A stretch of DNA of 64,000 nucleotides from an uncultured Candidatus Poseidoniales archaeon. Its GTDB lineage: Archaea > Thermoplasmatota > Poseidoniia > Poseidoniales > CAYMED01. The position numbers were made by a program, and so were the translations under genes. The DNA is taken from positions 122,217 through 186,216 of the forward strand of contig CAYMED010000001.1 in assembly GCA_964389655.1 (NCBI GenBank), given 5' to 3'. Positions 11,295-17,290 of this stretch are shown here, in pieces (the stretch's first letter is position 1; the number at the start of each line of letters is the position of its first letter). The notes below the pieces were generated by a model. That model was given only the letters and a program-made list of their open reading frames with translations. It was not told the DNA's origin and did no database searches.

Positions 11295-12029
11295 TTAGAA
11301 ACCCAGCACATTAGCGAATGAAGCACGCCAATCAGCCCCCCCATTCCGATTTGAAGCCGGATTCGCAGGACTTGGATGTGGAATGTGATCAACAATAATT
11401 TTACCTCCATCAAACAATTTTCTTGCACATTTCTCTGCATATCTTCCAACACCAATGACGCGGCTTATGTTGAGGACTTGAGCAACATCATTGAGGTGTT
11501 GGTCACAAATACTTGTGAGTTCTTTTGCCACATCTCCCCGCAGTTTATCAGGTGTAATATTTCGTCCATCTTTATCAAACATCCATAGGGGGCAATGATT
11601 GGCAACTAGTAAATGCCGATGGATTTCTTTAGCATTTCCAAAATGTGTGGAAAGAAATCCCCAAATTCTTCGTCCAGATATTTCCACTTTTGGGCATGAA
11701 AGTCCATACACCTTCCTCTTTGGGTGTGTTTTTGCAGGTTCCTTTACTTCCAAATTAGTGATTTTGAGGACATCACGAACTTTTTCTGGACATCCAAATG
11801 GGACCCCTGTGTTCCCCATCCCATGACCTGGATTCATCCCAACAAGGAGAGTTTTTGCCCCCAAACCCCCAAATCGTTCTAGATATGCTTTGTGAGGTTC
11901 CCAAGCATATTCTAGAGGATTGTAAATCCAAGCAACTGGTCCCTTGCTCATGAGTAATTGCTGAGCCACCGAAGTGGAATGGTCCCGCAAATTTTCAGCA
12001 GCAGATACGAGACCTTCAACAACATTCAT
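11295..12029 (-). CDS. SMUG1-family uracil-DNA glycosylase
   Basis: YNPLEYAW, GMNPGHGMGNTGVPFG, EISGRRIWG, NHCPL, HPSPANP; ATG 12029 overlaps the upstream stop (ATGA). Confidence 0.93.
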   Translation of the reverse strand: MNVVEGLVSAAENLRDHSTSVAQQLLMSKGPVAWIYNPLEYAWEPHKAYLERFGGLGAKTLLVGMNPGHGMGNTGVPFGCPEKVRDVLKITNLEVKEPAKTHPKRKVYGLSCPKVEISGRRIWGFLSTHFGNAKEIHRHLLVANHCPLWMFDKDGRNITPDKLRGDVAKELTSICDQHLNDVAQVLNISRVIGVGRYAEKCARKLFDGGKIIVDHIPHPSPANPASNRNGGADWRASFANVLGF

Positions 12030-13747
12030 GTCCAATCCTCCAGTACTAATCGTGCCAATTCGGGTATGTCGAGATTAGCCAAATCAAACCATTCCTTGAT
12101 ATCACTAATGCTGGAATTTGAAGCCACAGCCTTTGCCCGCTCAGAGACCAGCCTCCAAGCAGATTTTGCTCCAATTCCTGGGATCGATGCTAATTGTTTT
12201 TCAGAGACATGCTCGCATCTTATACCAATTTCAACTCCCGTAAGTGAGCGTGAACCATGGCCGGTTACAAGTACGTCTGATGCAGTTTCAAGTGGGATGA
12301 GATATGGTACACCAACAAGGAGGGGATACGCTCCAATTTGGCGACCAAACGTGATTCCTCCTTTTCCATGAATCATGGGATCTTTGTGCTTGTGTAAATG
12401 AACATGGTCAGGCAGTCTTGTCCGGCTGTTATGTGATTCCCAGTGCACATGATTTAGACGCTGTCCGATTGGAAACATTTCGCGAACAAGGCTAGAATCA
12501 ACCGCTTTGCGGACAAATGTCTTGAATTCATCAAAATCACTCTTATTGACCTCTTGAAATCCTTCCCCTTCGACTTGTCGAATATTGATCCGACGCAACC
12601 ATAATCCTTCGTCGACCAAAGATTGGAGAAAAGTACGATTGAGGTTGTATGAATGGGACGTTTCACCGTTAAGACCAGCAATAAAATTCAATCCCGGCAA
12701 TAGTTGGGGTAACCCTCGTTTTCCCCTTTTTCGCCCATATTGATTTACATGCCGAATTGCAGTCAAAAGTTGATCTGAATTACAGTTTAGCCAGTTTAAC
12801 TCGTGTACGGTGGGATCAACAGATTCCAACCCGAATGAAAGAACAGCACCATCCGAGAGTGTTTCAACAAGAGTTTTTGTAATCTCGGTAGAGGGTTCAA
12901 TATGTTCTGAGATGATGCTAGGGTTGGCATTGTCTACATGGAGAATATCTAGTCGTTCATCATCCCTCAGAGAATAAAGAAGTTCGGCAATTGGTTCAGG
13001 GTTTGGTATTGGATATTCGAGTTCTTGAATTCCTTCAGCCATGTATGTGTACACATCAGTCATTCCACCTAGACGAATATGCTTGACGCCGTGATCAAGA
13101 GCAACAGATGCTTCTTCAATCACGTCTTTTGGGGTCCTCCAAATTGGCATCCCTTTCTTTGGTTCAATACAGAAGCGACACCCTCGCTTATACCGAACAC
13201 AACCTTGGTATACTTCGATTTCATAGATCAAGGGCCCTCCAATATCAGGATGGTTTCTCACAGATCGTGAAGATGCCCCTGCAATCGCCCATTTATTCCA
13301 TTCATCATTTGTCCTTCTTTGTTGCTTGAAAAAACCCGTACCGAGAAATTGATTGAGTGATGCATCTATATCTTGAACTGCGAAGAATAAATTTTCTCTG
13401 AATGGCAACCGGCCCTTCTGTTTCCACCCTCTTATTGCCCATCCTCCGGCCAGAAAAGGAAGGTGCTTTGGTGCCTCAGCAATGAGGTCGCACGCTTCTT
13501 TACACGAAATTGGCGTGCCACGCAAATATTTCCCTGGCACGATCGCTCCAGCAACAAGAACAATGCCCTCGACATCTGAAAAATCTAATTTTTGACTATG
13601 CCGTAAATGATCTATGGTTAGATATCTGTAGTCAATCCCTCTCAGTTCCAATACACCACATACATACCGTACATGAAATCCAATATAGGGGGGGACGCCA
13701 AAGGCAGCTGGTTCATCTTCGTAGCCATCTATGATGAGCCAAGTCAA
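12026..13747 (-). CDS. Radical SAM protein with C-terminal helix-hairpin-helix (COG1031-like)
   Basis: IIDGYEDEPAAFGVPPYI N-terminus, GCVRYKRGCRFC cluster motif, LRRINIRQV, FGRQIGAYP, HhH LASIPGIGAKSA. Confidence 0.88.
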   Translation of the reverse strand: MTWLIIDGYEDEPAAFGVPPYIGFHVRYVCGVLELRGIDYRYLTIDHLRHSQKLDFSDVEGIVLVAGAIVPGKYLRGTPISCKEACDLIAEAPKHLPFLAGGWAIRGWKQKGRLPFRENLFFAVQDIDASLNQFLGTGFFKQQRRTNDEWNKWAIAGASSRSVRNHPDIGGPLIYEIEVYQGCVRYKRGCRFCIEPKKGMPIWRTPKDVIEEASVALDHGVKHIRLGGMTDVYTYMAEGIQELEYPIPNPEPIAELLYSLRDDERLDILHVDNANPSIISEHIEPSTEITKTLVETLSDGAVLSFGLESVDPTVHELNWLNCNSDQLLTAIRHVNQYGRKRGKRGLPQLLPGLNFIAGLNGETSHSYNLNRTFLQSLVDEGLWLRRINIRQVEGEGFQEVNKSDFDEFKTFVRKAVDSSLVREMFPIGQRLNHVHWESHNSRTRLPDHVHLHKHKDPMIHGKGGITFGRQIGAYPLLVGVPYLIPLETASDVLVTGHGSRSLTGVEIGIRCEHVSEKQLASIPGIGAKSAWRLVSERAKAVASNSSISDIKEWFDLANLDIPELARLVLEDWT

Positions 13748-13793: not shown

Positions 13794-15206
13794 CTATTCG
13801 TTTAGGCGCGATTCAAATTCGTTGCGAGAGATACTCCCTTCCTCAAGCATGGCCTGAAGTTCTCGTTTGGATTTTCTTTCTTTTGATCTATCTGTTCCAA
13901 GGCCAATTTTCTTATTTCCACCCTTTTGGCCAGATGGTTGCACATTTACTGGGCGGCCAAGTATCTTGGATCGATGAAGCTTTTCAATTGCTTTACTCGC
14001 ATTTTCAGGTGTCTCAAAAGTTACGAATCCGAACCCCCTTGAGCGCCCTGAATCCCGATCCTTCATGGCGATTGCATCGATCACAGTTCCGATTTGAGAG
14101 AAATGCTTGTGTAAATCAGTTGTTTCAGCTGCATGTGCTAAATTTCCAACGAATATCTTGCATGCTGGATCGAATTTTCGTTTTCCCCCTCCCCTTTGAT
14201 TCCCCTTCCCTTTCTTATCATCACCCGCTGGCCGAACACTAATTTTTGATCCTTGCATTTCTTTTCCATTAAGGTGGCCTATTGCACGTTTTGCTTCTTC
14301 AGGTGAGGACATTGTCACGAATCCAAATCCGCGTGGTTCGCGAGTATCTTTGTCTCGAACAGCAAATGCATCAGCAACGACTCCAACAACGGAGAAATGG
14401 TCATTGAGGTCTGATGTTTCAGCAGTTTTTGGCAAATTTCCCACAAATAGCCTACATGCCGGATCAAATGCATCTCGCGGTGAATCATTGCGCAATTGGA
14501 TTCCTCTTTCTCGGCGGCTTGCCGCCCATTCAGCCTCCACATTTGCAGCCCATCGTTTTCCACTGTTATTTAGCCGACTTATTTCTTCATCAGAAGATAG
14601 GGCATAACCATGGCCAAATCCATCTGACAAATTCCGAAACTCGCGCAATTTGCATGGATGACAAACGACATTGAAATCCCCATGACCTTCAGCATCAAGG
14701 GGAAAGCCACAGTTTGTGCATTGTGCATGGAGAACTCCTAATTCGCCTCCTTTTTTTGTTGACAATCGAACAATGGGGTCGGTGTCAATTACTTTTGCAC
14801 GCAATATATCTCTTTTCCGCATTGAATTTCTAGGTTCGGGAAGAAAACGGTCAACGATCTCATGAACCGCAATTTCTCCATATTCAAATTGAGGGATGAT
14901 GCCAGTTGCAGTACTTCCTTCAATCTGTAAAATACGTATTTCTACTGAACTATTGTTGAGCCGAACAACTTCTCCAATAACAACATCGCCCTTTTCCACT
15001 TTCCCCAATCCTGAATTAATCGCATCAACACGGATTGTATTATTTGAGCGATGTACATGTCCAAGGACAGTTGCAACAAGCTGTTCTCCAAATTCAGCCA
15101 CGCCACTCCCGGCTTCAGTTCCATTTGATGCGCAGATGATCGTTCCGGGAGTCACGAGTTCCTTTGAGGGGTTATCCACGTCTTGAGGGGCTCGGGTTCT
15201 GCTCAT
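13794..15206 (-). CDS. csl4: Exosome subunit Csl4 fused to two RRM domains and a SHOCT-like tail
   Basis: VTPGTII N-domain, S1 domain GDVVIGEV..DILRAKVI, Zn ribbon CTNC..CHPC; two RRMs with RNP2 (L/I)FVGNL and RNP1 RGFGFVT; start taken at ATG 15206 (ORF track 15251). Confidence 0.88.
   Translation of the reverse strand: MSRTRAPQDVDNPSKELVTPGTIICASNGTEAGSGVAEFGEQLVATVLGHVHRSNNTIRVDAINSGLGKVEKGDVVIGEVVRLNNSSVEIRILQIEGSTATGIIPQFEYGEIAVHEIVDRFLPEPRNSMRKRDILRAKVIDTDPIVRLSTKKGGELGVLHAQCTNCGFPLDAEGHGDFNVVCHPCKLREFRNLSDGFGHGYALSSDEEISRLNNSGKRWAANVEAEWAASRRERGIQLRNDSPRDAFDPACRLFVGNLPKTAETSDLNDHFSVVGVVADAFAVRDKDTREPRGFGFVTMSSPEEAKRAIGHLNGKEMQGSKISVRPAGDDKKGKGNQRGGGKRKFDPACKIFVGNLAHAAETTDLHKHFSQIGTVIDAIAMKDRDSGRSRGFGFVTFETPENASKAIEKLHRSKILGRPVNVQPSGQKGGNKKIGLGTDRSKERKSKRELQAMLEEGSISRNEFESRLNE
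13930..14468 (-). repeat. Tandem duplication of an RRM-coding unit inside csl4 (boundaries approximate)
   Basis: FDPACRLFVGNLPKTAETSDL..RGFGFVT vs FDPACKIFVGNLAHAAETTDL..RGFGFVT. Confidence 0.85.
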
Positions 15207-15223
15207 CAATCTGTTGACCTTTT

Positions 15224-15904
15224 CTACGAAGAATATCGCAGGCATCTCCATCCCCTGACTTGGGTTTTTTTTGCAGAACTACGGTGATAGATTTGTGTTG
15301 CTGGTAAGCGATATTCAGCATCAAAGATCACTTCTGAGTTCCATCCATATTCCTCGGCTAATCGTTCAATGTGGGAGGCTGTAGCAGCATGAAGTATGTG
15401 TATGGCTTTTGCGTTAGATGTGAATGCAGCTACCATTAGAGGGCGATCTGCCCCTCGGTTTATTGTGCCAAAAGGTGGATTCATCAAAATTGTGGCTGGC
15501 TGCAATATGTCTGGCCATTTCTCATCAATATTTGCATTCAATATAGTAACCTTTGGCGAATCTTCTTTGGGCCAGTTGCCGTGTATTGGTGGCCATCCTT
15601 TGATCTCACCTGTTGTGAGACCGAGACTTTTGGCAGCAAATACCGAAGAAGCCGCTCTTTCCTGATTCCTTTCAATCAAGAGGACTGGCTTTCCACTAAT
15701 CAGGTGTGCTCCAATTCCTAATATGCCTCCTCCTGCACCAAGATCGGCAATAGGCCCTTTTGTTAAATCTCCAAGTCGAAATGCGATCTCAAGCCATCGT
15801 GCAGCTAAATCTCCTTCGGTATTCCATGCTTCATCTTCTGGACCTGCAGAAGGCGGCGTTGGCAAAGCCGATAATCGCATTGCTAGGTCACGCAATCGCA
15901 TCAA
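15224..15904 (-). CDS. METTL5-family (COG2263) predicted RNA N6-methyltransferase
   Basis: ADLGAGGGILGIG SAM motif, ILMNPPFG, ADRP; lies upstream of csl4 as in other archaea. Confidence 0.85.
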   Translation of the reverse strand: MMRLRDLAMRLSALPTPPSAGPEDEAWNTEGDLAARWLEIAFRLGDLTKGPIADLGAGGGILGIGAHLISGKPVLLIERNQERAASSVFAAKSLGLTTGEIKGWPPIHGNWPKEDSPKVTILNANIDEKWPDILQPATILMNPPFGTINRGADRPLMVAAFTSNAKAIHILHAATASHIERLAEEYGWNSEVIFDAEYRLPATQIYHRSSAKKTQVRGWRCLRYSS

Positions 15905-15911
15905 CTTCGCC

Positions 15912-16241
15912 TCAAGTCTTGCGCATCAAATCCTTGAGGTTAGCAGACATATGCATTCGCCGCGCGCGGTGTTCTGCAGCCGATCGTTGTGCATTTTGAG
16001 AAACTTGTTGATCATGTGCATCAGGCACTTTCCAGTTTTCTGGCTTTGGGGCATTAGCAATTTGTGCTCCATTTCTATTTCCTGCTGCTTCACGTTGTAG
16101 TTCTTCGGACTCAATAATGCCGATCAAAGTGGCTCCACAAACTGCGCAAGCGGGAGTGCCTTCTCCTGCCACTTGTCCACAAGCCGTGCAGTAAACCATA
16201 CGAATGCCTATCCCCTTTCGTGTATGAAACCCACTGTTCAT
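15912..16241 (-). CDS. Small zinc-ribbon protein
   Basis: YCTACG..ACAVCGA (two CxxC); ATGA overlap with the upstream gene. Confidence 0.7.
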   Translation of the reverse strand: MNSGFHTRKGIGIRMVYCTACGQVAGEGTPACAVCGATLIGIIESEELQREAAGNRNGAQIANAPKPENWKVPDAHDQQVSQNAQRSAAEHRARRMHMSANLKDLMRKT

Positions 16242-17290
16242 CCTGCGACTTTAATGAATAGTGAATATTCATCTACACCTGCTGCGACTGCTCGGTCACT
16301 AGCAGATTGGAATTCTGGATGCTCAAGAATTTCAGAACCTTCAAGCCCTTCTCCCCGTAATTTGGCTATGAGGTCATCAATTTCTTTTTCCATTGTTGAA
16401 GCCGTCGAAGTACTTGAGGGGGTGATCTCTGAAATAATGTCTTGTGGTCCACTTAATGTTGACTTTGGTGCATCTGTGGAGGATAATGGAATTGGTTGAA
16501 TCGTCTGCCCTGTTGCCTGAATCACTTGCCCAACTGGTTGTGCTGGCATTTGGGTGGGTGGGTTTGGCATTGCTCCTTGTGCTGCCATTGCTTGCTGCAT
16601 CCAAATTTGCTGCATCTGCATCATTTGAGCCTGTTGCATTGCCATCATTTGCTCATTAGTCCAGCCCTGCTGCATCTGCTGTGTGGCTGGCAAAACTTGG
16701 GTTGATGCAGAGTCAGCAGGGCGTGAACTGACTTTTGCAACCATCGTGCCCACATCATTCGGTAATGCCTGTGGTGTTTCTCCAGTTGGAATGAATATGA
16801 ACGCTCTGCCAACAAGATGGTCTGGTCGCATGCCCATTGGGAAAAAGTCAATCTTCGGAAGTTCCGGATGCCGCCACATAGACCATGTTTGAGAATTGAA
16901 GTCCATTCTCGTAGGGACCGGAATTCCAGCAGGTATGGGAGTAATTTTGACAGAATGATCAAGCCAATCACTTCCTCGTAAACCCGCAACCCATTGTTCA
17001 ACATCTTTACGCGCAATATCGACAATCTGATAGGAAGCTGACATTAAGTCAAGACCTTGACTTTCTAGAACTTCAGACTCAGCGCCAGGCCGGAAGAAGA
17101 GCGTAATTACGGGTTCATGCAAGCTTATCGTTTCTCCACGCTTTTGGAATGCAGGTCTATCTGCTCGCCGACACATGATTAGGAATCTCGTTCTGTCGCT
17201 AGAAGTACCCAGTTCTCCCCATTTCCGGCCTTCTGCCTCATCAAGGAGCTCCGCGATGGTTACTCGATCAACGATCTCAAGTCTAGCCAC
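16238..17290 (-). CDS. Hypothetical protein with Gln/Met/Pro-rich low-complexity linker
   Basis: 350-aa ORF in a tightly packed run; QQMQQGWTNEQMMAMQQAQMMQMQQIWMQQAM tract. Confidence 0.75.
   Translation of the reverse strand: MARLEIVDRVTIAELLDEAEGRKWGELGTSSDRTRFLIMCRRADRPAFQKRGETISLHEPVITLFFRPGAESEVLESQGLDLMSASYQIVDIARKDVEQWVAGLRGSDWLDHSVKITPIPAGIPVPTRMDFNSQTWSMWRHPELPKIDFFPMGMRPDHLVGRAFIFIPTGETPQALPNDVGTMVAKVSSRPADSASTQVLPATQQMQQGWTNEQMMAMQQAQMMQMQQIWMQQAMAAQGAMPNPPTQMPAQPVGQVIQATGQTIQPIPLSSTDAPKSTLSGPQDIISEITPSSTSTASTMEKEIDDLIAKLRGEGLEGSEILEHPEFQSASDRAVAAGVDEYSLFIKVAG

Follow-up and report, generated by a model that had tools for sequence, protein, structure and literature searches.

In a stretch of 64,000 nucleotides (hereafter the window) from the genome of an uncultured archaeon of the order Poseidoniales, the gene at positions 13794-15206 of the minus strand encodes a full Csl4, a cap protein of the archaeal exosome, which continues in the same frame into a conserved extension, two RRM domains and a short helical tail (Table 1). 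The Poseidoniales, also known as Marine Group II, rank with the most abundant archaea of surface oceans. To our knowledge, none of them is in pure culture, and their RNA metabolism is therefore known from sequence alone.

The open reading frame extends without stops over 13794..15251 and gives 485 aa from its first ATG. The likely start of the gene is M16 at 15206, since a public gene call of 470 aa (P0002) begins there, this codon sits 17 nt beyond the stop of the upstream gene, and the starts of orthologues lie 8-15 aa ahead of the Csl4 homology. Residue numbers follow the 485-aa numbering throughout (M16 = residue 16). In public records, Csl4-RRM proteins are named 'hypothetical', 'CxxC-x17-CxxC domain-containing' or 'cold-inducible RNA-binding protein'. 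Because these names lack the Csl4 identity, Csl4 could be missed in exosome inventories of Poseidoniales genomes.

Table 1 Features of the Csl4-RRM-RRM gene and its immediate neighbours, in coordinates of the window. AF2, AlphaFold2; pLDDT, predicted local distance difference test
Feature	Position	Strand	Basis or remark
Csl4-RRM-RRM gene	13794..15206	-	470 aa from M16; with the in-frame ATG at 15251 as start, 485 aa and overlap with the upstream gene
Csl4 core: N-terminal domain, S1 barrel, C4 Zn ribbon (residues 31-215)	14607..15161	-	NF034126, 2ba1_A, Foldseek, pLDDT 83-94
Csl4 Zn ribbon, CxxC...CxxC (C178, C181, C197, C200)	14640..14738	-	Cysteine conservation, 36 homologues
Conserved post-Csl4 extension (residues 206-256), ~50 aa, partly helical, order-specific	14484..14636	-	Alignment and AF2
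RRM1 (residues 266-341)	14229..14456	-	Pfam RRM_1 at 14241-14450; RNP1/RNP2 intact; pLDDT 89-95
Gly/Lys-rich flexible linker between RRMs	14163..14228	-	pLDDT <50 at residues 347-359
RRM2 (residues 364-439)	13935..14162	-	Pfam RRM_1 at 13947-14156; RNP1/RNP2 intact; pLDDT 92-95
Two-helix tail (residues 460-485)	13797..13874	-	Helices 462-470 and 476-484, pLDDT 87-89 (AF2)
Radical SAM / helix-hairpin-helix gene	12026..13747	-	Pfam Radical_SAM and HHH_5
METTL5-like methyltransferase gene	15224..15904	-	PDB 1wy7 (PH1948) E 1.9e-17; human METTL5 6h2u E 1.5e-11

Domains of the Csl4-RRM-RRM protein

An earlier note on this DNA had read the gene as a complete Csl4 joined in one frame to two RRMs, and the profile searches bear this out. 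The NCBIfam equivalog model NF034126 was matched with E 2.3e-29 and 102.5 bits (cut-off 90), residues 31-212 covering profile positions 1-178 of 180. The Csl4 of A. fulgidus (PDB 2ba1_A) was found by sequence (E 7e-15) and also ranked first when the AF2 model was searched with Foldseek (E 5.8e-18, TM score 0.67 on the target, 184 columns), followed in the list by tandem-RRM proteins. Two Pfam families, ECR1_N and EXOSC1, scored under their thresholds, ECR1_N just under (25.2 bits vs 27). In an alignment of 36 homologues, three of the four zinc-ribbon cysteines are invariant and the fourth is conserved in at least 90%. The N-terminal domain is confidently folded in the model, and its residues P35, G36, G48 and G50 are invariant, as are several residues of the S1 barrel.

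The protein has in common with canonical archaeal Csl4 (A. fulgidus AF0206, PDB 2BA1/3M7N/3M85) the N-terminal domain, the S1 domain, the C4 zinc ribbon, the single gene copy and the METTL5-like neighbour. Whereas canonical Csl4 is about 180-200 aa long with nothing after the zinc ribbon, the window protein measures 470 aa and carries behind the ribbon an extension, two RRMs, basic linkers and a two-helix tail. This length is a variant feature and is not counted as grounds to doubt Csl4 orthology.

Directly behind the core, the extension falls past the end of the alignment with A. fulgidus Csl4 and matched nothing in the protein atlas or in Pfam. Six of its residues are invariant among the homologues (R206, G213, G231, R233, W234 and D256), and the model places helices at 224-228 and 236-249. 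Overall, the AF2 model, built from the same 36-homologue alignment, has a mean pLDDT of 81.5, with Csl4, RRM1 and RRM2 as confident modules separated by linkers that are predicted to be disordered (pLDDT <50 at 247-259, 347-359 and 442-457).

Pfam RRM_1 (PF00076) was matched in two stretches with E 1.2e-38 and 131 bits (gathering threshold 20.7); in a genome-wide scan each domain scored 68-71 bits. Both domains adopt the beta-alpha-beta-beta-alpha-beta topology in the model. As the earlier note had stated, they are joined by a G/K-rich linker and their RNP motifs are intact, with RNP2 reading LFVGNL and IFVGNL and RNP1 reading RGFGFVTM and RGFGFVTF; the RNP1 aromatics F311, F407 and F409 vary little or not at all. 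Its description of the two RRMs as highly similar was overstated, given that they are 50% identical. The protein also matched the NCBIfam model NF058537, 'RNA-binding regulator', with 122 bits (cut-off 100). Among free proteins, RRM2 is closest to small RRM proteins of prokaryotes (45-56% identity), and the nearest stand-alone relatives are 81-110 aa long and labelled 'cold-inducible RNA-binding protein' in some sources.

The tail lies at the very C-terminus and consists of two predicted helices. Its first half (S-K-R-E-L-x-A-M-x-E-E-G) is common to two-RRM forms of other Poseidoniales families, and its second half (x-I-S/T-x-x-E-F/Y-x-x-x-L) is limited to the family of the window protein. Scanned alone, the tail had SHOCT (PF09851) as its top Pfam match (E 0.012, 15.7 bits vs a gathering threshold of 27). 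The next three matches, also below threshold, were GvpG, DUF1707 ('SHOCT-like' in its Pfam description) and SHOCT_2, all of which we take to be SHOCT-related. The tails of two orthologues matched SHOCT or SHOCT_2 with E 1e-4 to 9e-3 (16.1 and 21.9 bits; SHOCT_2 22.7 bits, with 24 needed), and the tail of the other two-RRM family gave no SHOCT or other match when scanned. The pattern L-x-x-L-x-x-x-G-x-I-S/T-x-x-E-F is visible in a segment too short for significance. The likeness to SHOCT that the earlier note had pointed out is real, membership in the family is not supported, and it is fair to call the predicted two-helix tail SHOCT-like, at scores below the membership threshold.

Csl4-RRM fusions in the Poseidoniales

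In order to place the fusion, we searched a phylum sample of 201 Thermoplasmatota genomes and examined 41 genomes of Poseidoniales. Csl4 and RRM_1 occur together in one stop-free frame of 436-598 aa in 39 of the 41, some of these being single-contig genomes; one locus is truncated at a contig end. The remaining two lack Csl4 in the assembly, and in one of them (G015), which was also searched for RRM_1, none was found. The joint absence of Csl4 and RRM from this genome is as expected if one gene had been lost from an incomplete bin. Outside the order, Csl4 open frames in the sample are mostly about 185-220 aa, and in both genomes of Marine Group III (MGIII), the sister order in the same class, they are of normal size (214 and 187 aa). 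A few longer frames outside the order reach up to 747 aa, and no RRM_1 match was found in any of the genomes that carry them. Identity to Csl4 proteins outside the Poseidoniales is only 25-35%.

A library of 1.84 billion representative proteins gave the same picture. RRMs were confined to the Csl4 relatives with the highest scores, which are 387-487 aa long. Median length among the remainder is 192 aa, and the long ones among them (276-497 aa) contain no RRM or other recognisable domain. Five relatives in this library (P0356, P0330, P0392, P0323 and P0320) bear N-terminal extensions of 115-300 aa without a Pfam match.

The fusion is genuine and conserved and not an assembly artefact. A chimeric join, which the earlier note had named as a possible refutation, or a frameshift or read-through merging two neighbouring genes might be suspected in a metagenome bin of 104 contigs with 5.7% contamination, but with a single shared frame in 39 of 41 genomes including single-contig ones, many independent public contigs that carry the fusion, and a conserved junction region between Csl4 and RRM in the alignment, this explanation has a negligible chance of being right and is already refuted in practice. 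We found no paper on a Csl4-RRM fusion in the published literature, with most subscription journals lying outside the coverage. Among the papers found, a single one names Poseidoniales as well as Csl4, and its subject is Csl4 loss in DPANN (PMC7414124).

Within the order, the part behind Csl4 takes several forms. One family of 19 genomes combines Csl4 with a zf_Tbcl_2 zinc finger, one RRM and an RGG tail, and another of 18 genomes combines it with two RRMs and a tail in which S-R-E-L-x-A-M-x-E-E is followed by a basic run. The window protein belongs to a third family, which has its RRM or RRMs followed by a longer tail. All three have the orthologous Csl4, the extension and the gene neighbourhood in common. 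In contrast to the window protein, in which both RRMs are of one type, the other two-RRM family has RRMs of two old types, and its tail ends in the basic run with no SHOCT-like second helix. RRM copy number varies even inside one genus: the closest relatives of the window protein, from a same-genus genome (G001) and three public clusters (P0004-P0006), have one RRM with the same SHOCT-like tail where the window protein has two. Throughout, the variable domains (RRMs and zf_Tbcl_2) lie among basic Gly/Lys or RGG stretches. A further member of the same Csl4 group in the representative library, P0276 (460 aa), has a pair of zf_Tbcl_2 zinc fingers and lacks RRMs. This composition shows, at the level of domain architecture, that the C-terminal arm of Csl4 is modular.

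What is new with the window protein is the form of the third family, the occurrence of one and two RRMs in a single genus, the evidence for an independent duplication that is given below, and the SHOCT-like tail.

Origin of the two RRMs

Stand-alone RRM proteins are present in 37 of 165 non-Poseidoniales Thermoplasmatota genomes sampled, both MGIII genomes included, and they cluster in a few families, one of which has them in 20 of 24 genomes. Those that we extracted, twelve in all from G066, G201 and ten other Thermoplasmatota, are 81-96 aa long. Archaeal RRMs are thus less rare than usual statements have it, and in the Thermoplasmatota they are less scarce than the earlier note had assumed.

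In MGIII, the separate RRM proteins (84-89 aa) are encoded on contigs other than that of Csl4. Such pairs of a normal-length Csl4 and a small RRM protein agree with the proposal of the earlier note that an RRM had been captured. That note had also held that separately encoded Csl4 and RRMs in related genomes would speak against a genuine fusion; separate genes were found only outside the Poseidoniales, which dates the fusion, and within the order it holds. Since the nearest free relatives of the fused RRMs are small prokaryotic RRM proteins, the simplest history suggested by the sequences is that a small stand-alone RRM gene was captured onto Csl4 at the base of the Poseidoniales. The captured gene was likely of the small prokaryotic kind (bacterial and cyanobacterial Rbp type; NF058537), with which the window protein has in common the single-RRM unit and a short basic or Gly-rich tail. 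Unlike these free proteins, the unit in the window is fused to Csl4 and duplicated. A link of the fused RRMs to the MGIII stand-alone RRMs in particular was not recovered in the tree, where the MGIII copies group with other Thermoplasmatota stand-alones.

Maximum-likelihood trees (IQ-TREE, 48 and 60 rows) resolved three groups of fused RRMs. The first holds RRM1 of the 18-genome two-RRM family (support 96/98) and the second unites RRM2 of that family with the lone RRM of the zinc-finger family (99/91). The third is the window protein's family with both of its RRMs inside (90/92 and 94/92 in the two trees). Both RRM units of the window protein bear the flanks of their family, with F/Y-D-P-A/S-C preceding the first strand and V-R/Q-P-A/S-G following the last, and their DNA is still 72% identical over 78 nt (E 2e-8). 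Based on the trees, the family-specific flanks and this residual DNA similarity, the most likely source of the second RRM is a duplication of about 98 codons within the gene, independent of the older RRM pair that the other family has.

The earlier note had gone further and expected the two RRMs to be sisters. They do fall into one family clade, but their strict sister grouping has a support of only 71/55, and the approximately unbiased (AU) test leaves alternatives standing with p 0.10-0.58, among them a grouping of RRM2 with the RRM2 of the other families (p 0.10) and with stand-alone RRMs (p 0.26). Because of these alternatives, the local duplication is the best-supported history, short of proof. 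A quick tree that had placed RRM2 with the stand-alone RRMs was discarded, as constrained searches gave better trees.

A putative RNA-binding arm on the exosome cap

The archaeal exosome consists of an (Rrp41-Rrp42)3 ring capped by Rrp4 and/or Csl4, and is usually described as recruiting RNA via its S1/KH caps and DnaG. The genome that contains the window (2.1 Mb, 93% complete) has the complete set of partner genes, with an SBDS-Rrp4-Rrp41-Rrp42 operon and DnaG (NF003108, 400 bits). Its Csl4 is single, and a genome-wide RRM_1 scan of this 93%-complete genome found no RRM outside the Csl4-RRM gene. Of 38 loci in relatives, 37 have the METTL5-like gene upstream of Csl4, and the one that lacks it is truncated; a predicted RNA methylase beside csl4 is the canonical context in comparative genomics of the archaeal exosome. 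Apart from the rrp4-rrp41-rrp42 operon, the genome also holds a third RNase PH-domain gene (G000:C3:14385-14771; open frame 271 aa, 93.6 bits), which may encode an RNase PH of bacterial type or stem from contamination (5.7% in this bin).

Together, these data make it probable that the gene encodes the Csl4 cap subunit of an exosome with a permanent C-terminal RNA-binding arm, an arrangement that would apply throughout the Poseidoniales. The arm would comprise five parts, namely the extension of about 50 aa, RRM1, the disordered Gly/Lys linker, RRM2, and a basic linker with the two-helix SHOCT-like tail at its end. The Csl4 part would dock on the Rrp41/Rrp42 ring as in the canonical exosome, and each Csl4 would tether two bacterial-type RRMs near the cap via flexible basic linkers. 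In the 2BA1 structure the zinc-ribbon domain presumably sits on the outside of the cap, so that the arm would project outward. The RRMs would be expected to bind single-stranded RNA and increase its local concentration, and the arm to pass RNA 3' ends to the S1 domain and the central pore for phosphorolytic decay or A-rich tailing, with a possible effect on substrate choice. With up to three Csl4 per complex, as many as six RRMs could be present, which would therefore allow multivalent RNA capture. The tail may pair the arms or dock them.

Several points weigh against this proposal. The organism is uncultured, and the role of the protein in the exosome is a prediction from sequence. RRMs are capable of protein contacts too. 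Rrp4 and DnaG are both present, and an extra arm is therefore not obviously needed for RNA recruitment. Finally, the composition of the arm differs within the order (RRM and RRM, zinc finger and RRM, two zinc fingers, or one RRM), which favours a generic over a specific role.

In an alternative reading, Csl4 serves as a platform and the arm has a regulatory or tethering function: it would attach the exosome to another ribonucleoprotein such as the ribosome or a nascent transcript, gate the cap, or act as an RNA chaperone in the manner of small cold-inducible RRM proteins of bacteria. The match to NF058537 fits such a role, as do the small, partly 'cold-inducible' stand-alone relatives (81-110 aa), the conserved tail and the 50-aa extension, to which no RNA-binding role is assigned, and the availability of Rrp4 and DnaG for RNA recruitment. 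However, RNP1 and RNP2 are intact in RRM1 as well as in RRM2, the linkers are basic Gly/Lys or RGG stretches typical for direct RNA binding, and it is amid such stretches that the variable domains sit across the order. We consider this alternative unlikely.

It is more doubtful still that the protein works outside the exosome, with the Csl4 moiety reused as an S1/zinc-ribbon module of a free RNA-binding protein and the cap formed by Rrp4 alone. Exosomes without Csl4 do exist in some archaea, namely Undinarchaeota and cluster 2 DPANN (PMC7414124), and the sub-threshold scores of ECR1_N and EXOSC1 and the low identity to Csl4 outside the order point the same way. Yet the protein passes the full-length Csl4 equivalog model, its gene still lies beside the METTL5-like gene, and the complete exosome gene set is kept. 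In addition, the N-terminal domain, which we take to be the ring-contacting part in the 2BA1 structure, is confidently folded and retains its four invariant residues. Both alternatives agree less well than a cap subunit with an RNA-binding arm does with RNP motifs that are intact, with linkers that are basic, and with a Csl4 core and a set of exosome genes that have been retained.

Such a subunit would differ from known systems that bring RNA to exoribonucleases. In eukaryotes, RRM proteins deliver RNA to the exosome (RBM7 of the NEXT complex; Nrd1-Nab3), a functional analogy in which homology is limited to the RRM fold. RBM7 and Nab3 are separate proteins with known sequence preferences that act via the Mtr4 helicase or Pol II, whereas here the RRMs are covalently part of the cap and no helicase is implied. 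The nearest relatives of the window's RRMs are small prokaryotic RRM proteins, which sets them apart from the RBM7/Nab3 group. The earlier note's idea of an RNA-targeting adaptor built into the exosome stands as far as the fusion to the sole Csl4 goes; the adaptor role itself is suggested by the architecture, and a sequence-specific targeting of the RBM7/Nab3 kind is unsupported. Bacterial PNPase likewise has RNA-binding domains built in, but these are KH and S1 domains on the RNase PH ring, where the window protein carries RRMs on a cap subunit. In Sulfolobus, DnaG reportedly docks on the exosome through Csl4. A replacement of DnaG by the RRMs was considered and rejected, since DnaG is also encoded in the window's genome and the RRMs are no substitute for it.

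The Poseidoniales exosome would accordingly have an additional arm that is covalent, order-wide and repeatedly remodelled, and that in the archaeon of the window probably serves the exosome as its own means of catching RNA. The order could offer a natural system for asking how adaptors shape the substrate choice of the exosome. A bolder and unlikely extension of the proposal is that the arm is an evolvable capture module, rebuilt repeatedly (two independent RRM duplications, zinc finger with RRM, two zinc fingers, a single RRM), and that in the window's lineage the SHOCT-like tail links the arms of adjacent cap subunits, or those of two exosomes, to form a multivalent trap for RNA. If true, this trap would be a prokaryotic, covalent counterpart of the eukaryotic exosome adaptor complexes, with real substrate selectivity.

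On the other side of Csl4, the radical SAM gene lies 46 nt away on the same strand, and this downstream position is kept in 36 of 38 loci of relatives. It may be part of a gene cluster for RNA modification and decay. Its product has the motif C-x6-C-x2-C (CVRYKRGCRFC) instead of CX3CX2C, with a helix-hairpin-helix at the C-terminus. The end of this gene is overlapped by about 10 nt by a gene for a UDG-superfamily glycosylase-like protein (11295-12035, minus strand; Pfam UDG, 29 bits). A scan for bacterial-type promoters and terminators gave counts equal to those in shuffled sequences, archaeal promoters lying outside the models of the scan. Upstream of the methyltransferase-csl4 cluster, the gene at 16238-17290 (minus strand) encodes a protein of 350 aa that is rich in Gln and Met in its middle part and matches no family. 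It is followed on the same strand by a gene for a 109-aa zinc-ribbon protein (15912-16241), which is also present in a same-genus relative.

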